This document shows positions 8,123-57,019 of a DNA stretch of 64,000 nucleotides, piece after piece. The notes under the pieces are model-generated. The model searched no databases, was not told where the DNA came from, and saw only the letters and a list, made by a program, of their open reading frames with translations. The number at the start of each line of letters is the position of its first letter. Positions within the stretch are counted from its first letter, which is position 1. The stretch spans positions 1,398,419-1,462,418 of the forward strand of contig OZ244777.1 in NCBI GenBank assembly GCA_965219495.1. The letters are read 5' to 3'. The position numbers were made by a program, and so were the translations under genes. Source of the DNA: Rhodobacterales bacterium. Lineage in GTDB: Bacteria; Pseudomonadota; Alphaproteobacteria; Rhodobacterales; CAZPXZ01.

Positions 8123-9207
8123 CGGGTGGCTCCCGAATCAACAGAGATTCCGGCGTGCACCGACGGCATCTCGAGCGGATCAAATCCGTAGTGCCGCAGC
8201 CACCGAATATCGCATTCGAAAAATGCGCGCAGATCCGGCATGCCGTATTTGAGCATGGTCAGGCGGTCGATGCCGAGTCCGAACGCGAATCCCTGCCATT
8301 CGCCGGGATCCACGCCACACGCCCTCAACACGTTCGGATGCACCATTCCGCATCCGAGTATCTCCAACCAGTCCTCCCCTTCGCCGAAAGCGAGGCGACC
8401 GCCCTCCCAGGAGCATCGGAGGTCGACCTCCGCGGATGGTTCGGTGAACGGAAAATGCGAGGCCCGAAACCGGAGTTCGACACTCTCCACCTCGAAGAAG
8501 GCTCGGCAGAATTCCTCCAGCGTCCAGCGCAATTGCGCCATGGTCACATCCCGGTCGATCGCCATGCCTTCGACCTGGTGAAACATGGGCGAGTGCGTGA
8601 CATCGCTGTCGCAACGATACGTGCGTCCCGGCGCGATGAAGCGCACCGGCGGACCAAGTTCGAGCGTGCGTATCTGCACTGGAGAAGTATGCGTCCGAAG
8701 AACCCGTCTCTCGCCATCCGCCTCGGCGAAGAAGAACGTGTCGTGTTCCTGACGCGCCGGATGTTCGGGAGGCATGTTCAAGGCATCGAAGTTGTAGAAC
8801 TCACTTTCGACATCCGGTCCTTCGCGCAAGTCAAAACCGAGATCCGCAAAAATCGCGATGATGGACTCCGTTACCTGGTTGACCGGATGGATCGTCCCGG
8901 CCGCCTCTGGACGGGTTGGCAGAGTCACGTCGACGCCTTCGGCGACGAGGCGCTCTTCAAGTTCCACCTCGGCGTATTCCGCCTGACGCTTCGCGATTTC
9001 AGACTCGATATGAACCCTCAGTCGGTTGAGCACAGTGCCGCGCTGGCGCCGCGCTTCGGGCTCCATCTTTCCAAGCCCGCGGACCAACCGGGTAATCTGC
9101 CCCTTTCTGCCAAGGGCAGCCACACGAACCGCTTCGAGAGCGGCGGTGTTTTCCGAAGCCTCGATTGCCTTGAGGTACGAGTTCTGCAGTTCTTCCAGAT
9201 CGGACAT
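8119..9207 (-). CDS. pheS: phenylalanine--tRNA ligase alpha subunit
   Basis: 362 aa carrying class II aaRS motifs ([53 protein letters not shown]). Confidence 0.97.
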
Positions 9208-9247
9208 TCGACGAACAGCTTGCGGCTATTCCCCCATCGGGGAGATA

Positions 9248-9610
9248 TTATGCAATGGCTTTTTGGGCGCGCTCAAATATTGCGTCAAAGACTTCGGGCT
9301 CCCGAACCGCGAGATCTGCGAGCACTTTCCGGTCGCATTCAATCCCCGATTTCTTCAAGCCCTGTATAAAGCGGGAATAGGGAAAGGCAGGATCCCGAGC
9401 CCTCACCGCCGCATTGATACGCTGTATCCACAAGGTGCGAAAGTTGCGTTTGCGGACCTTTCGGTCCCGGGTCTGGTATTCCCGGGCGCGATCCACGGCC
9501 TGCATCGCGACCCGGATCGTGTTTTTGCGGCGGCCGGAATATCCCTTCGCGGCATTCAGAATCTTGCGGCGCCGGGCACGGCTGGCGACCGTGTATCTTG
9601 CTCGTGTCAT
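9248..9610 (-). CDS. rplT: 50S ribosomal protein L20
   Basis: 120 aa beginning [28 protein letters not shown]...[14 protein letters not shown]. Confidence 0.97.
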
Positions 9611-9625
9611 CGTCGATTCCCCGCT

Positions 9626-9823
9626 TCAACCGTACGGAATGAATTTGCGGACGATCTTCTGGTCGGGAGCGGACAGGACTTCCATTCCCCGCGCCTTGCG
9701 AATGAACTTCGGCGTTCGCTTGATCATGCCGTGGCGCTTCCCAGTTTGTTGCGCCTTGATGCGCCCGTTTGCGGTTACCTTGAATCGCTTCTTGGCCCCC
9801 GACTTTGTCTTCAGCTTGGGCAT
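9626..9823 (-). CDS. rpmI: 50S ribosomal protein L35
   Basis: Internal ATG of ORF 9626-9946 gives a 65-aa protein, [37 protein letters not shown]. The start codon complement cat is at 9821-9823. Confidence 0.95.
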
Positions 9824-10058
9824 TTCGTCCTCAAGAATGTGTTTGGACAACAGAAACAGCCGCCTCGGCAGCCCATTGCGAGCCGGGCGGCTCTGCTGAT
9901 CCCCGAAATACGGGAAATCGGGACGTTTGACAAGGGGGGCCGCCACGCGCCGCCTCCCTCCACAGTCCCAATTCTACTGTCTTGGGCAATCATACCTATC
10001 CGCAAGGGTTTCTCGGCGCCATTCCACGCCACTTGTGGCGAAGGCGCCTTCGGGCGAT

Positions 10059-29494: not shown

Positions 29495-29591
29495 TCGGAT
29501 TTAGCTAACCACCCCCGCCGAGGAGTTCCGATCATGCTGCCTGCCCGTCTTGGCTTCATTCCCGACAACGCCATCGTCATCAGCGAGCAGT

Positions 29592-29680
29592 GAGCGTGCT
29601 CACATAGATTGATTTCGGATCGGGTGGATCCGATCAGATTCCGTGCATGAATGTCGATCGGTTCCCCCGGGGTGCTTGCA
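29592..29680 (+). repeat. 89-bp repeat R1 (partner R2 at 33931-34019)
   Basis: Hand alignment gives 4 mismatches in 89 bp, same orientation. It contains CGGATC-GGGTG-GATCCG and GAATGTCGATCGG. Confidence 0.85.
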
Positions 29681-30436
29681 AGACTCCCTGAACGCAAAAG
29701 GAAACCTCCTTTTTTGGCGCCTTCACCACCGGAATTCGACGGGCCTTGATTGCCGTTTGCGGCTTTCCCGCCATCGGGATTGAATGGCGAATAGTGATGG
29801 TGTCATCGCCAACCAGAACCTCTTTGACCAGAAGCTGAACGATTCGTTGCCGTGCCGGAACGGCGATGTTCTCGGCCGAAGAACGCAATCGCGGCAGAAA
29901 GGCTGTCAGGGTTTCCGCGAACCGGAGATAGGTTTCCCGGTCCTGGGCTCGACTCACAACAAATTGCAATGCGGCATGAAGGGTCTTATTTCGTAATGTT
30001 GGGTTCAACATTACGAAATTGTGCCCCGCATGCCCGGGAAGAGCCGGTCATTGGCAACACGAGGGTCGTAAATCCCGTCTCCGTCCGACACCAGGCAGCC
30101 AACCAGGCCGCAATACTCCAGCAGCGTGTGCCAGTCTCGGCCATTGCGCGCAAGCCGGGAAGCCGCCACCGACAGGATCAATCCAACTTCCTTGCGGCAT
30201 ATGGCGGCCGGCAGTCGGTCAAATCCGGGCCGCGTCACGCCGTCCCCGGAACGGCCAAGGTAGTCGTCAACGGTCTCGATCCGCCGCCACCCCAGTTCCC
30301 GCGCACGCTCCATCAGACGGTATTGACGCTGTCGGCTTTCCGGGTGGTTCCGCACCTGGCCCGGCGTGGACTGGCGCACAAACACCCAGGCGGCACGGCT
30401 CAAATGCTCGGAGGTGATCCGGGAATCGTCATTCAT
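29681..30436 (-). pseudogene. large serine recombinase with large internal deletion
   Basis: The N-terminal resolvase domain (30011-30436: AAWVFVRQSTPGQV...ASRLARNGRDWHTLLEYCGLVGCLVSDGDGIYDP...GMRGTIS) is joined directly to a C-terminal tail (LQFVVSRAQDRETYLRFAETL...RQRIVQLLVKEVLVGDDTITIRHSIP). The junction is the palindrome at 29988-30019. Confidence 0.75.
29988..30019. repeat. perfect 14-4-14 palindrome HP3
   Basis: ATTTCGTAATGTTG GGTT CAACATTACGAAAT. The stop of the N-fragment and the start of the C-fragment both lie inside it. Confidence 0.95.
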
Positions 30437-31103
30437 TCTTCCCCCCTCCCTTCGCGCACCACGCCATCGCTTCCGCAATCGCCTCCGCCAAGAGCGCAAC
30501 CAGCCGCATCCGTAGTTCCTCCGTCAACGGCTCCAACGGGTTCTTCTGCGGAAACAACTCCGCCAGCCTCTCCTGTCTTCGTCCTGTCATCTCGTTCTCC
30601 CGCAGCCACTCCCTCCAGCCCGGAAAGAAACGCATTGACAACTTCACGCGCCGCCAGGAGGCTTCGCAACGAAATCCGTGGCGGGTCGCGAACGTCCAGC
30701 GCAGCCATTTCCGCGCGGGCCATCCATTCCGGAAGATAGGCAAGCGCTGCATCCGGTTGCCGGACAATCAGAACACCCTTGCCGCCAACTACCCGACGCG
30801 CAACACATTCTTAAGGATTACGCCGGCTCGTCAGAGCCGAGCTTAATCTTTTTGAACGAAGCCGCGTCCCCCTGGGCGGGGTTTTCACGCTATGTGCAAA
30901 GTGTGGTTGCCTGGAAGCGTTGGCGGACGTTCAGCGGGCTTGTTCTGTGCTTGAAGCGTGCTGGATTCGAAGCGTTTTGAACGACAGTGGGGTTGCGGGA
31001 CGGCGGTTTGCCATCGGGCGGAATGGACGAGGGAACGGCGCGAACAGGACGCGGTTGGCCGGCTCGGTTCGGCGCTGGATTGGCCTTGGTTTGTGCGGCG
31101 TCT

Positions 31104-32363
31104 TCATGGCGCGGGGATTTGCGGCGGGGCTGGCGGGGGCGGATCCCGGGATGACGGCGGGCTGGTCTGGCGGGGGATTTCGCGGATCCATTGCAGCTCT
31201 GCGCCGCAATGGGGATAGCCGGGCGCGGTGGCCGGCTCCGGCTCGGCATCCTGGCCGGAAGCGTCGGCTTGGCTCCCGGCTTGGGTGTTTTGCGGGGGGG
31301 CGGTCTCGAAGTTGTGTTCGAAGCCGCCCAGCGCCTTGCGGGCGCTTGCGAGGGTTTTTGCGCGGCTTCCGTTGGCGAGGATGCCGAAGTGGCGGATGCG
31401 GTGCAGGCGCTCGGGCAGGGCATGCAGCAGGAAGCGGCGGATGAACTCGCCGACGTCGAGGGTGGCGATCCCGTAGCGGGGTTTTGGCTGTCCGGGTTTG
31501 CGCGGCTTGCGGTAGCGGAAGGAGACTTTGCGGCCATCGAATGCGGTGATGCGGCTGTCGCCGATGGCAATTCTGTGGGTGTAGCGGGAGAGGTAGCGGA
31601 ACACTTGCTCGGGGCCGCGGAAGGGTCGTTTCGCGTAGATATTCCAGGCCCTTGCGCGGGCGGCGGCGAGGACGGCGCGGAACTCGGCGGGATTGGCGAG
31701 GTGGGCGATTCTGTCGTGGAACTCGAGTTCTCCGCGCGCCCAGGCGCGGTCGAGTTCTTCCGGGAAGCGGTTGCGGAAGCGGCTTGCGAGCACCTTGACG
31801 GGAGCGAAGAAGGTGCGGCTTCCGTTCTTCCATGTGCCGGTTTCGACATTGAAGCCGGCGTTGGGGACGATGCAGTGGAGGTGGGGATGGAAACCCAGCT
31901 TCTGGTTCCAGGTGTGCAGGACGGATGTGCCGCCGATCCGGCATCCGCCATGCCGGGGGTCGGCGGCGATGGCGCGCAGGGCGGCGGCGGCGGCGCGGGA
32001 CAGGATATCGAAGACGACCGTGCGATTGTAGAACGCGATGTCGGCGATGCTGCGGGGTAGCGTGAAGACCAGGTGGAAGTAGGGAACCGGCAGGATCTCG
32101 GCGCTGCGGGCTTGCATCCAGCGCCGTGCCGCGAGGCCCTGGCAGGACGGGCAGTGGCGGTTGCGGCAGGAGTTGTAGAGCGGATGCTCGCGCCCGCAGG
32201 ACGGGCAGCGGTAGAGATGGCCGCCGAGCAGGCGCGTGCGGCAGGCCTCGATGGCCGACATGATCTTGAGCAGGCCGCCGCCGAGGCGGCCCGCCATCTG
32301 CGCGGGCCGGGCCGGGCCGGCGCAACGGAAGATGTCCACCACGCCGGGGTGCGGTTCCTGCAT
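31104..32363 (-). CDS. IS91-family (HUH, Y2) transposase, copy 1
   Basis: 419 aa from MQEPHPGVVDIF. It has the zinc motif CPSCGREHPLYNSCRNRHCPSCQ, the HUH motif GFHPHLHCIVP and the two-tyrosine region FRYLSRYTHRIAI. Confidence 0.85.
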   Translation of the reverse strand: MQEPHPGVVDIFRCAGPARPAQMAGRLGGGLLKIMSAIEACRTRLLGGHLYRCPSCGREHPLYNSCRNRHCPSCQGLAARRWMQARSAEILPVPYFHLVFTLPRSIADIAFYNRTVVFDILSRAAAAALRAIAADPRHGGCRIGGTSVLHTWNQKLGFHPHLHCIVPNAGFNVETGTWKNGSRTFFAPVKVLASRFRNRFPEELDRAWARGELEFHDRIAHLANPAEFRAVLAAARARAWNIYAKRPFRGPEQVFRYLSRYTHRIAIGDSRITAFDGRKVSFRYRKPRKPGQPKPRYGIATLDVGEFIRRFLLHALPERLHRIRHFGILANGSRAKTLASARKALGGFEHNFETAPPQNTQAGSQADASGQDAEPEPATAPGYPHCGAELQWIREIPRQTSPPSSRDPPPPAPPQIPAP

Positions 32364-32542
32364 CCGGGGTCGGGCGCGCGACAGCGCGAAGTCCGAAACC
32401 GGATGGTTCAGCGACTCGAACATCTTGCCGGTGGCGCGGGCGTAGCCCCGCGTGGTTTCGGCATTGCGATGTCCGAGCGCGTCCTGGATGACATTGATAT
32501 CGCCGCCGCGTTCATGCATATGAGTCGCCGCCGAATGGCGCC
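32364..32542 (-). pseudogene. tyrosine recombinase, C-terminal half (box II) of the split IS91-associated integrase
   Basis: (R)HSAATHMHERGGDINVIQDALGHRNAETTRGYARATGKM, which includes the catalytic Tyr region. It runs in frame into the transposase ORF. Its 5' end is at palindrome HP1. Confidence 0.8.
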
Positions 32543-32567
32543 AATGTCGTGTGCGACATTGGCGCCA
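32536..32567. repeat. perfect 14-4-14 palindrome HP1
   Basis: TGGCGCCAATGTCG TGTG CGACATTGGCGCCA. GGCGCC is present on both sides of the 18-bp core. Confidence 0.95.
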
Positions 32568-32568
32568 C

Positions 32569-32942
32569 AATGTCTTGTACTTTTTACGTCGGGTAGCTGG
32601 CTTGAGGCCCTGCAAAGTCTCACGCTGAGTGCAGCATCACTCGACATAAGTCCATGCACGCAGTTTGCCCTTGGTATCCCAGACGGCTTGTTCCGAGAGT
32701 GATTGCAGAGTTTCTGCGAAGGTCCAAACCATTCTCGCGACAACCCTCACTTCTAATGCATCAAACACTTGCGTTCCTGTTGCGGTCTTGCTGGCGATAC
32801 GGACCATGAGTCCAGAAGCATCTTGATTCTCCATATCTCGAGTTGAATCTTGCAACGGAAGCCACAAGACCATGTCGAGTGATTTGACCCTTTTCGCCAA
32901 GCGGCCCAAGGACTTGAACGCATCGCTCGACATAAAATAATA
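32569..32942 (-). mobile_element. small (~383 bp) AT-richer TIR element inserted in the integrase gene (remaining 9 bp at 35376-35384)
   Basis: After the nested IS66-like element is removed, the ends read ACAATGTCTTGTACTTTTTACGTCGG and, as reverse complement, ATAATGTCTTGTATTATTTTATGTCGAG. About 22 of 27 positions match with one gap. The flanks carry GCGCC copies. Confidence 0.65.
32637..32933 (-). CDS. hypothetical 98-aa protein filling the small TIR element
   Basis: This is the only long ORF in the element (MSSDAFKSLGRLAKRVKSLDMVLWLPLQ...). I recognise no family. Its ATG lies within the subterminal repeat. Confidence 0.3.
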   Translation of the reverse strand: MSSDAFKSLGRLAKRVKSLDMVLWLPLQDSTRDMENQDASGLMVRIASKTATGTQVFDALEVRVVARMVWTFAETLQSLSEQAVWDTKGKLRAWTYVE

Positions 32943-32978
32943 GTAACCGTTCGGTTTTAGCGTGATGGGGCTGTGTAT

Positions 32979-33866
32979 TCAGCGGTTCAGGATTCGTTTC
33001 CGGTCTTTTCGCAGGGGGCGAAGCCAGATTTCCTTTTTGGGCAAGGCGTATTGGTTTTGGGTGTCGTAGCGTCCGCGGCCTTGGGTAGTTCCGACATGGA
33101 TCCATCCGGCGGCGCGGTAGGCGGTTCCGACGAATCGCGGGGTCTCGACGAAGGTTTCGACGAGGACGGGGTTGATGTTGTACTGGCGCTTCCAATCCTC
33201 GGGCAGGCGCTGTCGGGCGCTGGCGAGGATGTGGGAGGCGAGGTTGGGGATGCGGATCCAGGGCAGGATGAGGAACCTTGCATTGTCGCACAGGAGCGGG
33301 AGGTTTTTCTCGCGGGTTTGCGGGGACCATCCGATGAAGCGGTCGCGCGGGGCGGTTTTCCATGCCGCGGTGGAGAAGCCGAGCATGGCGAGCGGCGCTC
33401 CGTCGCGGTCCTGGACGGCGTAGCGCATCTGGGCGTCGACCAGGGTCTTGTAGCCGAGATAGTGATAGCGTTCGATGAACTCGTTCCACAGGCGGCTGGC
33501 GCGGGGGCCGGCGCCGGTGACCGGGACGAAGCGCAGCGGACGGACCGCTTCGAGGGTGGCGGGGGGCGGGAACAGCGGCGGGTCGGTGGCCGCGGTGAAG
33601 GGGACCGGCTTGCGCCTGGCGCGCTTGCGGCTTTTCGCCGGCGGCAGGACGATCACCCCGTCGCGATGCATTTTCAGCATGGTGACCTTGGCCATCATGT
33701 GCTTGAGGCCGCCATCCGGCTTGCGCCAGCCGATGCGGCGGCAGAACTCCCGGGCCAGCCGGCTGCGGTTCAAGGCCGGCGGCCCGGCGATCATGGCGCG
33801 CAGCAGTGCCATCTCCTGGGCGCTGAAATCGCGCCCGTAGTAGCGGCATTCGACCTCACCGGTCAT
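32979..33866 (-). CDS. DUF4338 domain protein (DruA-like)
   Basis: 295 aa with NEFIERYHYLGYKTLVDAQMRY, RDRFIGW, CDNARFLILPWIRIPNLASHIL, VETFVETPRFVGTAYRAAGWIHVGTTQGRGRYD. These are motifs I associate with DUF4338. Confidence 0.7.
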   Translation of the reverse strand: MTGEVECRYYGRDFSAQEMALLRAMIAGPPALNRSRLAREFCRRIGWRKPDGGLKHMMAKVTMLKMHRDGVIVLPPAKSRKRARRKPVPFTAATDPPLFPPPATLEAVRPLRFVPVTGAGPRASRLWNEFIERYHYLGYKTLVDAQMRYAVQDRDGAPLAMLGFSTAAWKTAPRDRFIGWSPQTREKNLPLLCDNARFLILPWIRIPNLASHILASARQRLPEDWKRQYNINPVLVETFVETPRFVGTAYRAAGWIHVGTTQGRGRYDTQNQYALPKKEIWLRPLRKDRKRILNR

Positions 33867-33930
33867 GGCGGTTCTTGCAGCCTGCGCCTTCGCTCTTCGC
33901 TCATCGTCCAGGGAAGCCAGATCGCCAGGT

Positions 33931-34019
33931 GTGCGTGCTCACAAAGATTGATTCCGGATCGGGTGGATCCGATCAGATTCCGTGCATGAATGTCGATCGG
34001 TTCCCCCGGGGAGCTTGCA
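33931..34019 (+). repeat. 89-bp repeat R2 (partner of R1)
   Basis: See R1. It lies in the divergent intergenic region between the DUF4338 gene and the Cys-rich ORF. Confidence 0.85.
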
Positions 34020-34073
34020 CAAGCATCCCCGGGGGGTTTGTCTCTCTTGTTATCCAGCAGGAGAGACCAATCA

Positions 34074-34316
34074 ATGTTGCACGGAATCCTCGTCGGCGCC
34101 AGTGAGTGGGCGCATTTCACCCGGATTGACGCGTCGATCGCGGAGGCGTTTCGCGAGGTGGGCTGCGGCCGCTGCGGGGGGCGGCTTCACGTTGCGGATT
34201 ATGCGCGCGAGCCCCGTGGCCTCGGCTTCCGCCGGGGTGAGGGCTTCACGCGGTTCAGCTTCTGCTGCGGTTCGGAGGGCTGCCGGCGGCGGTCGACGCC
34301 GCCCTCGGTGCGCTAA
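34074..34316 (+). CDS. Cys-rich hypothetical protein (probably 3'-truncated)
   Basis: MLHGILVGASEWAHFTRIDASIAEAFREVGCGRCGGRLHVADYAREPRGLG...FSFCCGSEGCRRRSTPPSVR, with GGAGAG upstream. A zinc-ribbon-like CxxC...CC...C pattern. It runs into the antisense strand of the IS66 transposase remnant. Confidence 0.45.
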   Translation: MLHGILVGASEWAHFTRIDASIAEAFREVGCGRCGGRLHVADYAREPRGLGFRRGEGFTRFSFCCGSEGCRRRSTPPSVR

Positions 34317-34434
34317 TTCGGTTCGCGGGTTTACGCCTCCGGATGCTTTCCGGTGGTTTCGGCGCTTTCCGGCGGTTGCAGCGCCGCGGCGGGTTGCTGC
34401 GGGCGCTCCGGTGGCTGTTGCCGTGGCGCTGCGC

Positions 34435-35261
34435 GAGCGATCGACATGAAACCACACCGCGTCGAGCGAAATCCCCACCCACAGCCAGGCGCGGCGCGAG
34501 GCGCCCGCCTCGCCGAGCGCCTGGATCCGCCAGCTGGTCTCGCCGCCCTGGCGCAACCGTTCTGCCGCGCCAGGATCGCTTCCGAAAGCGGCGCGAACAG
34601 CGGCAGGAAACGGAGGATGCTGCTCGACAGGGTCCCCGCTGACAGCCGCAGTCCTTGCTCGCTCATCCATGCCGCGATCCGGTTGACCGGCCGGAAACAG
34701 GCATAGCACTCGTACAGGAAGCGCGCCCAGAAGCTGACGCCGTATGGCGTGTTCGCGAACAGCCGCGCTACCGGCGGCGCCGACACCTCTCGCGGCGACG
34801 ACGCGCAGTCGCAGGCCCGCCGCCGAAGCACGCGCCTGTGCGCCCGGACCTCCACTTCGACGATCTCCAAAACGTGCGAACCGTTCGCCACATAGGATGC
34901 GCCGCAAGTGCCGCAGACCCGGTCCGTCTGCGGTGGATCGCGCGCTTCCGTCTTCTTCGCCAGCTCCGGCCGCTGCGTGCGGCCATGCCCGGCGGCGCCG
35001 AACCGCCGCCGACACCGAAGCCAGCTTCTCGCGGCAACGCTCGAAACCCGAGCGCCAGGAATGCGCCGCTTGCCGCGCGCGACCCGCCTCCCAAAACCGC
35101 GCCTCAGCTTCCGCCTGCAGCGCATCCGACCGTCCCTGTTCCCGTGCGTACAACCGCCGCCAGTCCGGCCCCGCCGGCAACGGCGCACACGCCAAAATCG
35201 GGTCCACCCCGCCAACCGGCGGGGCCGGCATCGTCCCATGCACATCGTCGCGAATCGCCAT
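34435..35261 (-). pseudogene. IS66-family transposase (TnpC-like), frameshifted and 3'-truncated
   Basis: Three frames are needed: an N-terminal coiled region, then VCGTCGASY...VEVRAHRRVLRRRACDC...RIAAWMSEQGLRLSAGTL, then GETSWRIQALGEAGASRRAWLWVGISLDAVWFHVDRSRSA. Homology ends near 34440. Confidence 0.7.
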
Positions 35262-35384
35262 GCATCACACATAGCGCATCCTGAAACGGGTTACCAGTGC
35301 ATCGGCCAATTCGGGATAATGGAAATTAACGGCCGCACGAAAACATCACGTGACAACCGAACGGTTACAATAATACAAGACATT

Positions 35385-36095
35385 ATGGCGCAAACAATGA
35401 AAGGTATGGCGCCGATGGATGCCGGCCCGGTCACGGGCCTGGAGGAAGGCGAAGTTCAGGGTCGCCTTCTTGACGGGGGTGTCCGGGGACTTGCCATAGA
35501 ACAGCCAGCTTGCCGGTCGCGGATAGAGGCGGCTCCAATAGGAGCGCAGATATTCGATCGCCCGCTCCGGCAGCGGCGCCATGCGCTCGTGTCCGCCCTT
35601 GCCGGCGCGGATGTGCAGCAGCCGGCGGTCGGCGTGGATGTCGGAGACCTGCAACGAGAGGGTCTCCGAAATCCGCAGGCCGGCAGCATAGGCGGTCAGC
35701 ATCGCCGCCCGGCAGCGCAGGTCGGGGGTCGCCAGCAGCAAGCGCTCGACCTCTTCCTCTTCGAGATGCCGGGGCAGCTTGCGGGGGATCTTGCGGTTGC
35801 GCAGCCCGGCGACCAGGTCGGGACGGCCGAGCGTATCGCGGAAGAAAAACCGCAACGCGGAGAGGCAGACGTTGGTGGAGCCGGGGTGCAGTCCGCGGTC
35901 GATCAGTTCCAGGACCCAGGCCCGGATTTGCTCCGTATCCAGTTGCTCAGGCGACTGGCCGTAATGGCGGGCAAGACGCCAGATCTCGCGCAGGTAGGAC
36001 TGCTGCGTGTTGTCGGCGAGATTGGCGATGCGCATCTGATCGATCAACCGCTGGCGAAGAATGGAACCCTTGTTCTTGGTGCTTGAAGTCATCAT
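35385..36095 (-). pseudogene. tyrosine recombinase, N-terminal part (ends at HCLRH) of the split IS91-associated integrase
   Basis: MMTSSTKNKGSILRQRLIDQMRIANLADNTQQSYLREI...AYAAGLRISETLSLQVSDIHADRRLLHIRAGKGGHERMAPL...HTFHCLRH, then unrelated codons. The C-terminal half is 2.8 kb downstream at 32364-32542. Confidence 0.8.
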
Positions 36096-51999: not shown

Positions 52000-52581
52000 T
52001 CATCCGGTGGCAATGCCAATGAGCTTGCGCTCCGGTAGCTGTTTCCAGCCCGCGTTGCGCCAGCGCTTGTGACGATGCGACCAGATACGTCGCAAGATCC
52101 AGCCGTCAAGCTGGTGGAAGAGTTGGCGAACATGGGCATTGCAGTAGTATTGGCCCCAGCCGCGAATGACCGGATTGATCTCGTCGATCAACTCCCGCGT
52201 ACTGACGGGAGACTTGCGCCGCGTGCGCTTGCGGATCTGGTCCTTGAAGTGCCGGACGGATTTCGCACGCGGAACCGCGTAGCGCGTCCCCCTGCGAGCC
52301 CCGCTCCTGATCTTCGAGGGATGCAGCCTGAACGGCCGCCGGCCCTGCTTGATCTTGAAGCCGAGAAATTCGAACCCGTACTTCACATGGACAATACGGG
52401 TCTTCCCGGCATGCAGGGTCACGCCCAGCTTCGACAGTATCCGCCTGGCTTCCTCCAGTGCCGCCCGGGCTTCCCCGTCTGTGCGGCATGTGATCAGCCA
52501 GTCGTCGGCATATCGAGTAAGTCGATAAGCGCGCCGGCGCATTTCCCGATCAGACGGGGTCAGCAAGATATTACTGAGCAA
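52000..52581 (-). pseudogene. group II intron reverse transcriptase/maturase, C-terminal fragment
   Basis: LLSNILLTPSDREM...RYADDWLITC (the YADD motif), followed by the maturase X region (INPVIRGWGQYY). RT domains 0-4 are missing. Confidence 0.8.
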
Positions 52582-52585
52582 CGGA

Positions 52586-52668
52586 TATGGGAACCTTATG
52601 ATTATGGGAACCTAAGCCGCTGCGGGCGTTGATTTTCAAGGGATTGGACAAGGATCAGGTTCCCATAA
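52586..52668. repeat. TATGGGAACCT x2 (direct) plus inverted AGGTTCCCATA
   Basis: Copies at 52586-52596 and 52603-52613, with the inverted copy at 52658-52668. They lie exactly between the 5' break of the RT fragment and the 3' end of an integrase fragment. Confidence 0.8.
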
Positions 52669-52679
52669 AATTGGCGGGT

Positions 52680-52907
52680 TCAGGTGCCTGCGAGCATCGC
52701 GAGCAACTCGTCCTGCACACCCTTGAACATGCCCTTCCGGAGGCTGGGAGGGCGCCATTTGTCGAGCGTATCCAGCTTGTCGGTCGGATCCGCCTGCAGA
52801 TACATCTCGGTGGTCTGAAGGCTTGAGTGCCCAAGCCAGAGTGAGACCTTCCTGACGTCACCGGTCGCCTCGAGAGTGTGGGTCGCGCAAGCGTGACGCC
52901 TATGTCG
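52680..52907 (-). pseudogene. tyrosine recombinase C-terminal fragment (box II only)
   Basis: RHACATHTLEATGDVRKVSLWLGHSSLQTTEMYLQADPTDKL...LAGT-stop. It begins at the 50-bp palindrome. Confidence 0.75.
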
Positions 52908-52934
52908 TGCACGACATAGGCGTCACGCTTGCGC
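52885..52934. repeat. perfect 50-bp palindrome HP2
   Basis: GCGCAAGCGTGACGCCTATGTCGTG | CACGACATAGGCGTCACGCTTGCGC. The inner part, TATGTCG-TGCA-CGACATA, resembles HP1. Confidence 0.95.
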
Positions 52935-53157
52935 AATGCACATCCTGGAGGCCACAAAAGATATCCGGAAAGTATCCCTCTGGCTGGGCCATGCCAGCAT
53001 GCAGAGCACCGCAGCCTACCTCCGTGTCGATCCCGTGGAAAAGCTCGAGGTGTTGAACGCAATTGTCCCCCCGGCAATCAAAAAGGGATCGTTCGATGGG
53101 GCGCAGGACAAACTGCTTCGGATGCTAGGCGACGCCCCGACTCCACAAATATGTTAA
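52912..53157 (+). pseudogene. second, divergent tyrosine recombinase C-terminal fragment, head-to-head with the first
   Basis: RHACAMHILEATKDIRKVSLWLGHASMQSTAAYLRVDPVEKL...PQIC-stop. Confidence 0.75.
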
Positions 53158-53238
53158 GTGATTCCGGCCCCGAGGCCAGCGCCACAAGGGCGCTCGCCGC
53201 CTCACTCAACATATGTCTTTACTCAACATATTGAATAG

Positions 53239-53275
53239 GCTCTTATCGGTCATGCTGCGCATGACCGATAAGAGC
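53239..53275. repeat. 17-bp-stem hairpin downstream of IS91-type transposase copy 2
   Basis: GCTCTTATCGGTCATGC TGC GCATGACCGATAAGAGC, a perfect stem. Candidate ori-end structure of the rolling-circle element (inference). Confidence 0.6.
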
Positions 53276-53649
53276 GTTGAGCTGAGCCGCGCGCTCCAGA
53301 TGGCGCTGTTCAATGGGGAATGGAAAGGCTGGGCCGGGATTGATTGTGCGGAAGCGATGCGTTTAGTGGCTCGCCACGGGTTCGCCGTGACGTCGAGAGC
53401 CGGCTCCGGGTAGATTTCTTCCTCCAGGCAGGGGCATTCGAGGTCGCTTTTCAGAATCACGAGCGAGATCGACACAGCAGCGACGCGAGCCGGCGGTGCG
53501 TCGCGGCGATATCGGATCGGGATCGGTCGGCACTGGCGCATCGTCATGGTGGTCGGGGCCTTTTCGCTCCTGTCGCGGTCTGGAACCGTGGCCCGGGAAT
53601 GGGGATCTGTCGCAGTGGACCCTGCCCGCACTGCTGGCACACAGTGATG

Positions 53650-54753
53650 TCAATTCCCGTCAGGCGTAGCATCATCTCCTGCGTCGTTTCCGGCTCGGAC
53701 GGTTCCGGATCGGGCTAACCGAGCAGCGCTCGGCATTGGGCAAGCTTGCGAGCCCGGAAGCGATTGGCGAGCAAACCGTAGTGGCGTAGCCGGGTGAATC
53801 CGTGCGGGAGAAAGCGGCGGATGAACTCGTCGGGGTTGAGGCGCATGACCTTGGCTTTGTTGCCATGCGCGTAATCGCGCCACCGGAAGCGGACGTGCTG
53901 GCCGTCGAAGTCGAGCAGACGGTGGTTGGCGATGGCGGTTTTGTGGGTGTAGCGCCCGAGATAGCCCAGAACCTGTTCCGCGCCGGCGAAGGGGGCCTTG
54001 GTGTAGACCACCCAGTCGTGCGACCGCAGCGCAGTTTTCAGCGCTTCGAACACGCGGTCGTCGCCGACGCGATTGGGGCCCGGCATGCCCAGCTCGCGCT
54101 TGCGATGGGCGGTGGTGAGGATGTCGAGATACTTTCCCCGAAAGACCTTGGAGAGGGCCGCCGTGGGAAACAGGAATCCCTTCCGGGCCGGGGTGAGCCA
54201 GCGTTCGTGGCCCGGGCTCAAGCCGCCGTCGGTGACGATGCAGTGGACATGGATGTGCTGCCCCAAGTTCTGCCCCCAAGGTGTGCAGCACCATGGTGAT
54301 GCCGAGCTCACCGCCGAGCCAGCGGGGATTGCGCCCGAACTCGAGCAAGGTCTGGGAAGCGGCCTTGAAGAGCAGCTTGTAGAGGAGTTCGGGACGCGCC
54401 TGGGCGAGGGGGTTGAGCTCGTGTGGCAGCGTGAACACGACATGCCAGTAGCCGATGTCGAGCAGATCGGCACACTGACGCTCGACCCATCGGGTCTGCG
54501 AGAGAGTCTGACACTTGGGGCAGTGCCGGTTCCGGCGCGACGCATATTGAAAGGTCACCGCGCCGCAGTGGTCGCAATGAGCCTTGAATCCGCCGAGAGC
54601 GGCGGTACGACACCGCACCAAGTCGTCCACGACCCGCTGTTGCCGGGTCGAGAGCCGATGCGACTCCGCGTAGGCATCGGCACGTTCGCGGAGAATGTCC
54701 GCCACTTCCAGTGCCGGCCGAGCGGCCGGCGCTGCGTGGCTGGCATGAGCCAC
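53650..54753 (-). pseudogene. IS91-family (HUH) transposase, copy 2, frameshifted
   Basis: GTG start. It has the zinc motif CDHCGAVTFQYASRRNRHCPKCQ. The frame is lost at about 54279 by one extra base (ACCTTGGGGGC where ACCTGGGGGC would give HTWGQNLGQHIHVHCIV). The second frame continues to YLGRYTHKTAI...RHYGLLANR. Confidence 0.8.
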
Positions 54754-54756
54754 CGG

Positions 54757-55618
54757 TCAGGACGACGCGGCTCGTGGGAACTCCAACAGATCCAGTGGCG
54801 ACGGCGTGGCGCTTGTCTTGTTCTGTGCAAGATGCAGGTAGCGCATCGTCGAACGGATCGAGCCGTGCCCGAGCCGGCGCTGAATGACGGGGAGTTCGAC
54901 CCCGGCCTCGAGGAGCCCGGTGGCGTAGCAGTGCCTCAACGTGTGGATCCCGCCGGCTTTGCGGATCCCGGCCTTCCGCTTGGCACACTTGTAGATGTGT
55001 GCGGCCCCCGCGCGGGTCATCGGCCGGCCAAGAAGCTGGCTGGGGAACAGCCAGGGTCGGGGGCGCTCGCGGTGCCAGTACTTGCGCAGCTGCTTGAGCA
55101 GCCGGGGCGAGAGCGGAACGTAACGGTCCTTGTTGCCCCTGCCCTAGTCGACGCGCAGACACATCCGCGCGGAGTCGATGTCCGTGAGCTGCAATCGGCC
55201 GAGCTCGCTTGCCCGAAGTCCCGCGGCGTAGGCCGTCATCAGCAAGGCGCGATGCTTGGAGTTGGTGGTGACCGCGAACAGCCGCACCAGTTCGTCGTGG
55301 TTGAGGATCTCGGGCAGCGTGGAAGGCGTCTTGGCGCCGGGTACCGGGTACATAGAAGTGCGGGTCGGGCAGACCGAGCGTGACGCGGTACAGGAAGCGA
55401 ATGCCGTGGCGTACGCAGTTGCAGCTCTTCCAGCTCAATCCGCGTTCTTCGTGCAGGTAGATGAGGTAATCCTGGACCTCCTGCGCCGAGATCCTGCCGG
55501 GACTGCGGCGGTAGTGTCGCGCGAGCCCGGTGACGGAGTGGAGATAGGAACGCATGGCGTTCTCGGCAAAGGCGCGGACCGTCATGTCGTTTACCATCCG
55601 TTTACGCAAAGGTGTCAT
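54757..55618 (-). pseudogene. tyrosine recombinase partner of IS91 copy 2, inactivated
   Basis: N-terminal SAM-like domain (MTPLRKRMVNDMTVRAFAENAMRSYLHSV...). A 7-bp tandem duplication CGGGTAC at 55338-55351 shifts the frame. In-frame TAG at 55144-55146 (LRVD*GRGNKDRY). The C-terminus is intact (HTLRHCYATGLLEAGVELPVIQRRLGHGSIRSTMRYLH). Confidence 0.8.
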
Positions 55619-55838
55619 GAGTCGTCTCCCTTGAAGTGTGATCGATCACGAAGACGCACCAACCATTGCGCCCGCCGGTGCGTCGGTGAACGACTATCGC
55701 GAAACGACGGAGAGACGGGAACGGTCTACGATATCCGCGACCGTCAAACAGTCGCGCTGAAACGACTCACCGGAACAAGGAAAATCACTCTGAGCGCGCG
55801 GCGGGCACCCTCCCGCCGCGGAACGCGGCTCAGTTCAG

Positions 55839-55870
55839 TGGGAGATATGTTGTTCTCAACATATCTCCCA
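55839..55870. repeat. perfect 14-4-14 palindrome HP4
   Basis: TGGGAGATATGTTG TTCT CAACATATCTCCCA, at the boundary between IS91-type copy 2 and the group II intron remnant. Confidence 0.95.
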
Positions 55871-57019
55871 GGTCCCTGTGCAGCGCGTACGTGCATCCCT
55901 TGGGGGCTTCGACACCGCAGGGTCCCACCCTGCCTCACCCGTTCCGGCAGAGAAGATGTCGCCTTCGACCCTTCACAAAGTCTTGGGACCCCGGACATAC
56001 CCTTTGTCGGTGCTCAATTCCCACGGCTACACGCTCCCCTGTCAACGCTTGACCGCCATCCTCACGAATGACAGCCCACGACTCGGGGCGAAAGGGGTCG
56101 GTTACACCTTGTCGGGTAGGGCACTGGCGCGCGCACCCTTAGGTGGAGGCTTATCCGGTCCTGCCCTTTCGGTCGCAGGTGGGTGCGCAGCTCCACCATA
56201 GGCCACGTTTCCAGCCGCCCTCCCCAAAAACCGGACTTCGGGTTTTCCCCGGTACGGCTTCAAGCAACAGGCACCTGGCAGTTTGGAGCGGAGCCTTCCG
56301 CGTGACCGCCGAGGTTAAGGCCGACCCAGCCATTCCCCCGAGCAGAACCCGCGTTCACTCCGTCCTCAGGCTGCATCGACCACCGTGAGGCTCCGCCACT
56401 GTGTGCGGGCCCCTTGGATGCCGTACAGCCGCCTGTGCCCAGAGGTCCTCGCTCCGGGTGGGTTGTGTTGTCCCACACTTCATCCCTTGGCGACCTCATC
56501 CGCCAGTGTGGAGATCTCCGTCTCATGTCCCGGAACAACCGGTTATAGAGACGGTCTTTGACATTCATAGCGTCATCCTGTCCAACCTCCACACCTTCCG
56601 GACTTTCGCTGCTGTACTTGCCAGGATTGCCGCCTTCAATACGCCGGGTGACCCGTGCTCTTCTCAGTTCCTTCCGCATCGGCTCTGGCCATCGGATCAT
56701 ACGGACACCCTTGGCATCACCAACACCCCGCAAGTCAGCTCCATGCGGGAACCCGTTTTGGCGCTTCATCCGTTCGCTTTCGCTACGGCCCTCCTGTTTG
56801 CTCGCCCCCTGCGCTGACCGGACCGGCAGGGCTTTACGTCCCTGCAAGCCTCCCAGGGCTTTTACTTCCGGGCTTCCAGGTCACCAGGTCACCCCGCATG
56901 CCTGCCGGATATTACTACGACGCCAAACTGAGAATTGCGCCGGTGGGACTTTCACCCACTAGTACAGCAGCTAGTCTCGCTGCACCCTTTCTACTGGACG
57001 TTCACCAGCTACATTGCAC
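55871..57019 (-). ncRNA. group II intron 5' ribozyme fragment (domains I to about IV), truncated
   Basis: The minus strand starts GTGCAATGTAGC at 57019. It contains recurrent GNRA-loop and receptor-like motifs (GGTGAAAGTCCCACC, GCGAAAGCGAAC, GCGAAAGTCCGGAAGG, GGGGAAAACCCGAAGTCCGG) and no credible ORF over more than 1.1 kb. An RT fragment of the same orientation lies 3.3 kb downstream. Confidence 0.45.

Follow-up and report, generated by a model that had tools for sequence, protein, structure and literature searches.

Among the described mobile elements that lack a transposase gene of their own, two groups come closest to the subject of this report: miniature inverted-repeat transposable elements (MITEs), which are a few hundred base pairs long, fold as a long stem between their inverted repeats, are flanked by a short duplication and occur in more than one copy, and mobile insertion cassettes (MICs) such as MIC231, in which the ends of the insertion sequence (IS) IS231 surround a passenger gene. 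Other mobile elements hunt for particular sites; the Tn5053/Tn402 'res hunters', IS1111-attC elements, IS4321/IS5075, inteins and homing introns rely on target DNA that is conserved in sequence or structure, or remove themselves by splicing. Here, we describe a small element bounded by terminal inverted repeats (TIRs) in a stretch of 64,000 nt, referred to below as the window, from a Rhodobacterales bacterium (GenBank assembly GCA_965219495.1, contig OZ244777.1, positions 1,398,419 to 1,462,418). The element interrupts a tyrosine-recombinase (integrase) gene of an IS91-family unit at the Arg-His codons of the catalytic Box II motif HxLRH, and a second copy abuts the same codon position of another recombinase gene. 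At a probability of roughly 0.6, we regard the window copy as a decayed copy of a non-autonomous, MITE-type DNA transposon that had not been described before. All of the evidence comes from one metagenomic population, represented by three related assemblies and one further contig.

With MITEs, the element shares its small size (below ~600 bp), inverted repeats, a long stem, the lack of a transposase gene and the presence of more than one copy, at unrelated sites, and its window copy has what may be a short flanking duplication; it differs from them in that no parent IS sharing its ends was found and in that only two full copies were recovered. We know of no described MITE that prefers a single codon position of tyrosine-recombinase genes. 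The site-hunting elements offer a second likeness, as the insertions of the small element recur at one critical, conserved position in genes of other mobile elements. In contrast to the site hunters, however, the small element meets variable target DNA, has inverted repeats and an apparent duplication, and kills the gene without splicing. With MICs, it has in common TIRs with 5'-CAT tips and an internal open reading frame (ORF) that encodes no transposase, whereas its apparent duplication is 4-7 bp long, its ORF is unsupported as a gene and no IS4-type partner was found. Classification as a MIC was rejected for want of a functional passenger gene, the ORF having no homologues and being disrupted in the second copy. 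In the IS4 family, conserved 5'-CAT ends and duplications of 10-12 bp characterise the subgroups IS231 and ISH8 (PMC2266710); the tips by themselves do not allow the element to be placed in an IS family, for the 5'-CAT tip resembles these subgroups but the length of the duplication does not fit.

A small inverted-repeat element in a split integrase gene

On the minus strand of the window, a tyrosine-recombinase gene lies in two pieces separated by 2.8 kb, most of which is a nested IS66-like element (Table 1). The separate pieces score 82 and 37 bits in Pfam, vs 129 bits when they are rejoined: deletion in silico of the insert together with one copy of the 7-bp direct repeat ATGGCGC restores the reading ...HCLRHSAATH... 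and yields a single Phage_integrase match (2-169/172). The small element itself is recovered once the IS66-like insert and one of its AATAATA flanks are taken out, and then comprises 32566-32942 joined to 35376-35387, a total of 389 bp if its ends are taken as 5'-CA...TG-3'. The ATGGCGC repeat brackets the element together with an adjoining palindrome, P2, while the shorter GCGC (4 bp) brackets the element and P2 each on its own; both readings fit the window copy.

The TIRs are imperfect, ~28 bp long and begin CAYAATGTCTTGTA. An inverted-repeat comparison places the arms at 32559-32584 and 35369-35394 (26 nt, 85% complementary) with a shared perfect 11-mer, AATGTCTTGTA; by eye, the similarity extends over ~28 nt (CAYAATGTCTTGTAYTWTTTTAYGTCGRG). 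The extreme ends read 5'-CAT...ATG-3', and the two ends of the family can be written as CATAATGTCTTGTAYTWTTTTAYGTCGAG. The subterminal repeat TTATGTCGAGYGATG is present twice (0.12 expected by chance), and inverted copies of its core, CTCGACAT and CCCGACGT, lie ~40 nt off, so that a hairpin is possible at each end of the element; the subterminal TTATGTCGAG repeats alternate in orientation. The element as a whole folds as a long stem (z ~ -4.3 on both strands) because its inverted repeats pair. No transposase gene is present within it, and the sole ORF of at least 60 aa has neither a transposase nor any other domain. The element is more than a chance arrangement: it sits exactly at the break in the integrase, and the same two ends recur at a second locus, where 0 such occurrences are expected. 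The insertion is also common to strains that differ by 1-3% (locus L015).

These findings bear out most of what the original prediction, made from the nucleotide sequence alone, had said of the anatomy. It had proposed a compact, TIR-bounded insert in the integrase that was later struck by an IS66-like element, and every feature it described lies at or near the place it gave. The claimed size of 383 bp falls within the boundary tolerance of the 389 bp found here, which is indeed too small for a transposase; the lower GC content is real (0.497 at 32569-32942, vs 0.613 for the window); and the claimed match between TIR tips and palindrome cores holds in that the core of the adjoining palindrome, AATGTCG, equals the tips of the inverted repeats. 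The copy count that it had called for returned one further full copy and four palindromes that look like two joined tips.

The second full copy was reached through the protein P0001, discussed below, and measures 387 bp (L014:10328-10714, on contig ctg811885 of ENA assembly ERZ25067264). Its inverted repeats are 22 nt long and 95% complementary, and its flanks have no alignable counterpart around the window copy. Overall, the two copies are 84% identical, but the identity is a mosaic, with 89% over the first 100 alignment columns, essentially 100% over the next ~100 (including an identical block of 113 nt) and about 74%, with indels, over the second half. This pattern suggests recombination among diverged members of a family. 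On the same strand, the sequence upstream of End A reads ...CPTLQGKRVSPHTLRH/YILYFFMSSD, where the slash marks the border of the element, and the flank is a fragment of a RitC-like recombinase that ends exactly at ...KRVSPHTLRH (tblastn E = 1.4e-5 against Rhizobium RitC). RitC is the third recombinase of the recombinase-in-trio (RIT) elements, and the flank matches it in 302 plasmid records. Both copies accordingly abut tyrosine-recombinase genes that are unrelated to each other, and stand in the same orientation and frame, LRH/NVLYYFMSSD in the window and LRH/YILYFFMSSD at the second locus. Read on the opposite strand, the second flank could instead be taken for an integrase C-part; this alternative was rejected, as its tblastn E-values of 0.02-0.1 are much weaker than that of the N-part on the same strand.

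The surroundings of the second copy form a graveyard of insertion sequences. Nested IS fragments at L014 10745-13597 (-) read as one ORF of 950 aa, in which an IS21 IstB-like ATPase lies inside a Transposase_29-type gene, and the locus also carries IS1595, DDE_Tnp_1, HipA and PrlF/YhaV genes.

The 98-codon reading frame

One ORF of 98 codons occupies 76% of the element, with its start (ATG) and stop (TGA) codons each inside a copy of the subterminal repeat. Its product has no domain in Pfam, NCBIfam, PHROGs, PADLOC or the PDB sequences, in keeping with the earlier statement that no motif could be recognised. A word-indexed homologue search found no relatives, and HMMER, run exhaustively against 1.84 billion representative proteins, returned only two significant ones, P0001 and P0002, both of which are singleton clusters and derive from copies of the element itself: P0002 covers 31 residues of the window locus in another sample, and P0001 is a protein of 175 residues whose last 59 are 93% identical to the first 59 of the ORF. 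The single-sequence AlphaFold model of the product has a mean predicted local distance difference test (pLDDT) score of 49, and gene callers skipped the frame in three independent assemblies of the locus. In the second copy, a TAA stands at codon 60 and is followed by frameshifts, and over codons 1-59 the two copies differ by 2 synonymous and 4 non-synonymous changes. Because of this stop, the frameshifts and the ratio of changes, we conclude that purifying selection does not act on the frame, which is most likely open by accident rather than cargo.

A role of the ORF as meaningful cargo is thus not supported, given its lack of homologues, the low pLDDT, and the nonsense codon and frameshifts in the second copy. 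The counter-scenario offered in the original prediction, a captured fragment without other copies whose frame is the 3' end of a larger known gene, does not describe the locus either: the second copy exists, and no such gene was found. An RNA gene was considered and rejected, as Rfam has no hit in 32300-33100 at E ≤ 1 and the fully conserved block of 112 nt folds like shuffled sequence (z = 0.2 and -1.3). For annotation, the lesson is that a tempting frame of 98 codons in a small repeat element can be accidental.

Insertion sites and palindromes

Next to End B lies the perfect palindrome P2, and a scan of the window for perfect palindromes sharing its inner core identified three more, P1, P3 and P4 (Table 1). 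The core WATGTYG-N4-CRACATW occurs 4 times in the window, vs 0.01 expected in shuffled sequence. The inner 8-9 nt of the palindromes (ATGTCGTG, ATGTTGKK) resemble the tips of the element (ATGTCTTG); the outer 7-8 nt vary from one palindrome to another and within each are perfect inverted copies. The arms reach 8, 8, 8 and 17 bp past the core, compared with an extension of at most 4 bp in every one of the 119 chance matches to ATGTCG-N4-CGACAT-N-GGCG in IMG/VR that served as a control. Three assemblies reproduce P1 and P2 (P2 in L012, L013 and L015), the diverged strain L015 showing small differences, and the palindromes are thus not assembly artefacts.

Two of the palindromes stand at tyrosine-recombinase genes. 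The two different integrase C-parts that flank P3 head to head both match Pfam Phage_integrase from position 133 (Arg-His), which is also where the C-part of the window integrase starts. By comparison with an intact Agrobacterium homologue (CTG CGC CAT AGC TGC GCA ATG CAC), the native sequence at P3 begins G CGT CAC, the same nucleotide at which the window C-part begins (G CGC CAT). Taken together, five junctions in four recombinase genes share one nucleotide position, two of them at the end of an N-part (the window integrase and the second locus) and three at the start of a C-part (the window integrase and the left and right sides of P3). What these sites have in common is a codon position in tyrosine-recombinase genes, namely the third base of the Leu codon followed by the Arg and His codons of HxLRH, and no DNA word. 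The 'GGCGCC-like' target envisaged in the original prediction survives only in part: GCGCCAT is duplicated around the window copy, but the second copy abuts TAGACAT and P3 abuts GCGTCAC.

From these junctions, we infer that, within tyrosine-recombinase genes, insertions of the family strongly favour the Arg-His codons of Box II, which would be a property of its transposition machinery. The preference is not absolute, given the locations of P1 and P4. The palindromes themselves would be what remains, joined tip to tip, of sister copies after the loss of their interiors. A possible precedent exists in Tn10, for which Foster and colleagues are said to have described in 1981 a 'nearly precise excision' that leaves a short palindromic remnant of both tips through deletion promoted by the inverted repeats. 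Similarly, P1-P4 look like two element tips joined at former insertion sites. They differ from the Tn10 case in that their outer 7-8 nt are perfect inverted copies of one flank and in that three of the four are exactly 32 bp long, features that the precedent leaves unexplained.

A bolder reading is that of a transposon family homing to the Box II Arg-His codons in the integrases of other elements, both IS91-associated and RIT-type, with the site read otherwise than by a DNA word and with 32-bp palindromes carrying inverted flank copies left behind; such a family would be a selfish 'integrase-killer' at work where mobile elements are in conflict. We consider this possible and, on the whole, doubtful. 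If the preference is true, this would be, to our knowledge, the first mobile element aimed at the catalytic-motif codons of tyrosine recombinases, and it would provide one mobile element with a means of disabling the integrases of others, among them IS91-type units and recombinase-in-trio elements. An exact codon position combined with variable target DNA poses a concrete puzzle of site recognition, and the perfect 32-bp palindromes with their inverted flank copies are a second oddity, of repair or of transposition chemistry. Split integrases in metagenomic assemblies deserve a check for inserts of this kind.

Table 1. Coordinates of the small element, the gene it interrupts and related features of the window
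Feature	Position	Strand	Remarks
Tyrosine-recombinase N-part, IS91-family unit	35385-36092	-	SAM-like domain plus catalytic domain to HCLRH; ends ...HTFHCLRH; Pfam
Tyrosine-recombinase C-part (RH SAATH...LGH...Y)	32430-32541	-	starts at 32541 as RH SAATHMHERGG; runs on into the IS91 Y2 transposase ORF; Pfam
Left 7-bp direct repeat, ATGGCGC	32535-32541		on the gene strand GCGCCAT, i.e. Leu third base plus Arg and His codons; start of C-part
Right copy of ATGGCGC	35385-35391		end of integrase N-part (...HCLRH)
Small TIR element, main part	32566-32942	-	End B (ORF-distal) to the IS66-like insertion point; GC 0.50; aligns end to end with L014:10328-10714
Small TIR element, last 12 bp of End A, CAAGACATTATG	35376-35387	-	severed from the main part by the nested IS66-like insertion
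End B terminal inverted repeat, CACAATGTCTTGTACTTTTTACGTCGGG	32566-32593	+	inverted-repeat scan; tip in related strain L015 is CATAATG...
End A inverted repeat, inner 17 nt	32926-32942	-	joined with 35376-35387 reads CATAATGTCTTGTATTATTTTATGTCGAG
Subterminal repeat, TTATGTCGAGTGATG	32635-32649	-	holds the ORF stop codon
Subterminal repeat, TTATGTCGAGCGATG	32921-32935	-	holds the ORF start codon
98-codon ORF, probably no functional gene	32637-32933	-	ATG start; continues the frame of the upstream integrase N-part when the IS66-like insert is taken out
Nested decayed IS66-like element	32943-35368	-	31-nt arms, 84% complementary, GTAACCGTTCGG...; IS66 transposase fragment and DruA-like ORF; AATAATA flanks at 32936-32942 and 35369-35375
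P1	29988-30019		14-4-14; core TAATGTTG..CAACATTA; at the break of a truncated serine-recombinase gene
P2	32536-32567		14-4-14; TGGCGCCAATGTCG-TGTG-CGACATTGGCGCCA; perfect 14-bp stem, DNA folding z = -4.8; between End B and integrase C-part
P3	52885-52934		25-0-25; core CTATGTCGTG/CACGACATAG; two integrase C-parts head to head, same nucleotide (G/GCGTCAC)
P4	55839-55870		14-4-14; core ATATGTTG..CAACATAT; between the 5' part of a group II intron and the second IS91-like unit
RIT-like integrase C-terminal fragment from P3 (RH ACATHTLE...LGH...Y)	52680-52884	-	Pfam; resembles plasmid RIT-type recombinases
Second RIT-like integrase C-terminal fragment from P3 (RH ACAMHILE...LGH...Y)	52935-53150	+	Pfam; resembles plasmid RIT-type recombinases

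Proposed history, rival explanations and neighbouring elements

Under the MITE-type reading, a transposase acting in trans, most likely of the DDE type and making staggered cuts, would have placed the element into the tyrosine-recombinase gene of the IS91-family unit. The insertion would have duplicated either 7 bp, GCGCCAT (in Box II, HxLRH, the third base of the Leu codon and both following codons, Arg and His), or 4 bp, GCGC, and would have inactivated the recombinase. The IS66-like element would then have landed in End A and immobilised the small element. At P3, an inversion between two oppositely oriented copies, seated in two integrase genes, may have been followed by collapse of the element. 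What is shown is the anatomy, the exact restoration of the integrase, the second copy, the common break point and the decay of the ORF; the DDE mechanism and the mobilisation in trans are inferred, as are the remnant origin of the palindromes and the target preference of the machinery.

Several observations weigh against this account. Only two full copies were recovered, both from one ENA metagenome set, and further DNA copies were absent from the GTDB genomes (in which AATGTCTTGTANTNTTTTANGT gave 11 chance matches in AT-rich genomes, none with a partner repeat), the JGI metagenomes (one chance match to a 20-mer from the conserved block), IMG/VR (nothing related to any of four patterns) and PLSDB (no blastn match to the whole element or to the inverted repeat). 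An autonomous partner with the same ends was found neither in the window or the 20-kb loci L012-L015 nor in these four collections, a search by DNA that did not extend to the ENA source assemblies, and neither L014 nor L015 holds an IS with similar inverted repeats. At the second copy, the tip of End B is shortened and adjoins a different IS, and no duplication is readable; in the window copy, the sequence is equally consistent with a duplication of 4 bp (GCGC, the ends then being CA...TG) and with one of 7 bp (GCGCCAT), which leaves its size ambiguous. The second copy came to light through a called fusion ORF, which biases detection toward in-frame insertions in genes. The target DNA differs among the shared sites (GCGCCAT, GCGTCAC, TAGACAT), and because it is not conserved, no recognition mechanism can be proposed. 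P1 and P4 lie outside tyrosine-recombinase genes. Finally, the outer arms of the palindromes are inverted, not direct, copies of the flank, which a simple DDE insertion followed by internal deletion would not lead one to expect.

In one rival explanation, the element and the palindromes are substrates of an IS91-family HUH (Y2) transposase, or of a similar single-strand enzyme, and represent hairpin mini-elements moved by a rolling-circle or single-strand mechanism and not by a DDE enzyme. All four palindromes and the window copy do lie in or beside two IS91-family units, and each end of the element is able to fold into a ~12-bp stem around a loop of 40-43 nt. The ends of IS91-family elements (oriIS and terIS) have hairpin-forming subterminal palindromes, and the tetranucleotides used in cleavage and as targets are CTCG, CTTG and GTTC (PMC13181058); in the small element, comparably, the tips contain GTCTTGTA (CTTG) and the subterminal repeats contain CTCGAC. 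IS91-family ends, however, are not inverted repeats of each other, and the family makes no target duplication (PMC13181058), whereas the small element has both TIRs and a 7-bp repeat, a difference on which its classification as an IS91-family mini-element foundered. Its two ends are also symmetric, not functionally distinct as ori and ter, and the second copy has no Y2 gene within 10 kb. We consider this explanation unlikely. Still less probable, in our estimation, is a cassette moved by site-specific recombination of a tyrosine recombinase. This reading takes a palindrome of 32-34 bp as a lox-like core with 13-bp arms around an 8-bp spacer; the ends of the element would serve as half-sites, and crossover would take place in the 7-bp repeat. 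P2 can be read as 13-8-13, as in loxP, an identical 7-bp segment stands on both sides of the insert, and everything lies inside recombinase genes. Yet the ends are inverted, so that recombination would invert the element and not excise it; neither end has a second arm beyond its tip; the outer arms of the palindromes vary by copy, which a sequence-specific recombinase would not tolerate; and the flank of the second copy (TAGACAT) has no GCGCC arm. A Xer/dif- or lox-type module fared no better, as there is one arm-like tip per border and the likeness to dif (GCGC-ATAATGT) rests on flank bases absent from the second locus.

The ORF might alternatively be real, belonging either to a mobile insertion cassette or to a module that swaps the catalytic C-terminus of the integrase for a tail of 106 residues and so creates an inactive or regulatory variant. 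Its extent within the element would fit, 98 open codons are not expected often at 50% GC (an estimated ~1% per frame), and in both copies the frame is fused to the N-part of the integrase. This fusion follows automatically, however, from the shared site and orientation, and the stop codon and frameshifts in the second copy, the 2 synonymous to 4 non-synonymous changes, the lack of homologues, domains and a confident fold, and the failure of gene callers to report the frame in three assemblies leave the proposal improbable. The view that the insert is no mobile element at all, but a fragment that was captured or a product of faulty assembly, its inverted repeats being fortuitous, draws on the comparable imperfect inverted repeats that arise by chance in the same 8.5 kb and on the source assemblies being low-coverage long-read contigs. 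This view is effectively refuted by the second copy, which has the same two ends between unrelated flanks, by boundaries that coincide exactly with the break in the integrase, and by the occurrence of the locus and its palindrome in three independent assemblies that differ at the strain level.

Other classes were rejected as well. An intein is discounted by the TGA that ends the ORF 68 nt before End B and by the lack of an HN motif, and a group I or II intron by the lack of Rfam hits in 32300-33100, the group II hits of the window lying only at 55.9-57.0 kb. An integron cassette was tested and failed. Ends of the Transib/RAG type have a 5'-CACAATG heptamer and a 5-bp GC-rich duplication; at this locus, CACAATG occurs at one end in one strain, with CATAATG in L015 and at End A and CATTATA at the second copy.

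The nested insertion also has features of its own. Members of the IS66 family have inverted repeats beginning GTAA..., an IS66 DDE transposase and an 8-bp duplication; the element in the window has GTAACCG inverted repeats, a partial match to DDE_Tnp_IS66 (E = 1.5e-5) and a duplication of 7 bp (AATAATA), and is decayed. Beside what is a mere fragment of the IS66 transposase, it carries a DruA/DUF4338-like ORF at 32979-33866 (-; Pfam E = 9e-39). A direct repeat of 91 nt, 96% identical, links 33929-34019 within this element to 29590-29680 beside the truncated serine-recombinase region. Strains vary here as well: an indel of ~185 bp near 34385 distinguishes assembly L013 from the window, and L015, from a third metagenome and 97-99% identical, has a different internal deletion in the IS66-like element and an extra IS5-like element (DDE_Tnp_1; 9017-9976) inside the small element, at the place of 32752-32756 in the window, with a 5-bp overlap.

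Additional observations concern the genes around the palindromes. At P1, a large serine-recombinase gene (29634-30499, -) is cut off after position ~120 of the Resolvase domain, exactly at the palindrome, whose flanks are imperfect inverted copies of each other over ~29 nt. Near P2, the ORF at 31104-32615 (-) joins the integrase C-part to the IS91 Y2 transposase without an intervening stop; the uninterrupted ancestor may have been an integrase-Y2 fusion or two overlapping genes. The region 52000-56130, which holds P3 and P4, comprises a second IS91-family unit seemingly inserted in a group II intron, as judged from an Rfam group-II-D1D4-6 match at 55903-56127(-) (122 bits) and a C-terminal reverse-transcriptase fragment at 52000-52581(-). 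Downstream of the Y2 transposase of this unit lies a perfect 17-3-17 palindrome, 53239-53275 (GCTCTTATCGGTCATGC-TGC-GCATGACCGATAAGAGC), with a core unlike those of P1-P4; an oriIS hairpin of the IS91 type and a terminator are both possible identities. The integrase (55618-54308) and Y2 transposase (54753-53650) genes of the second unit are both frameshifted in the assembly, and the integrase is intact at HTLRH (CAC ACG TTG AGG CAC).

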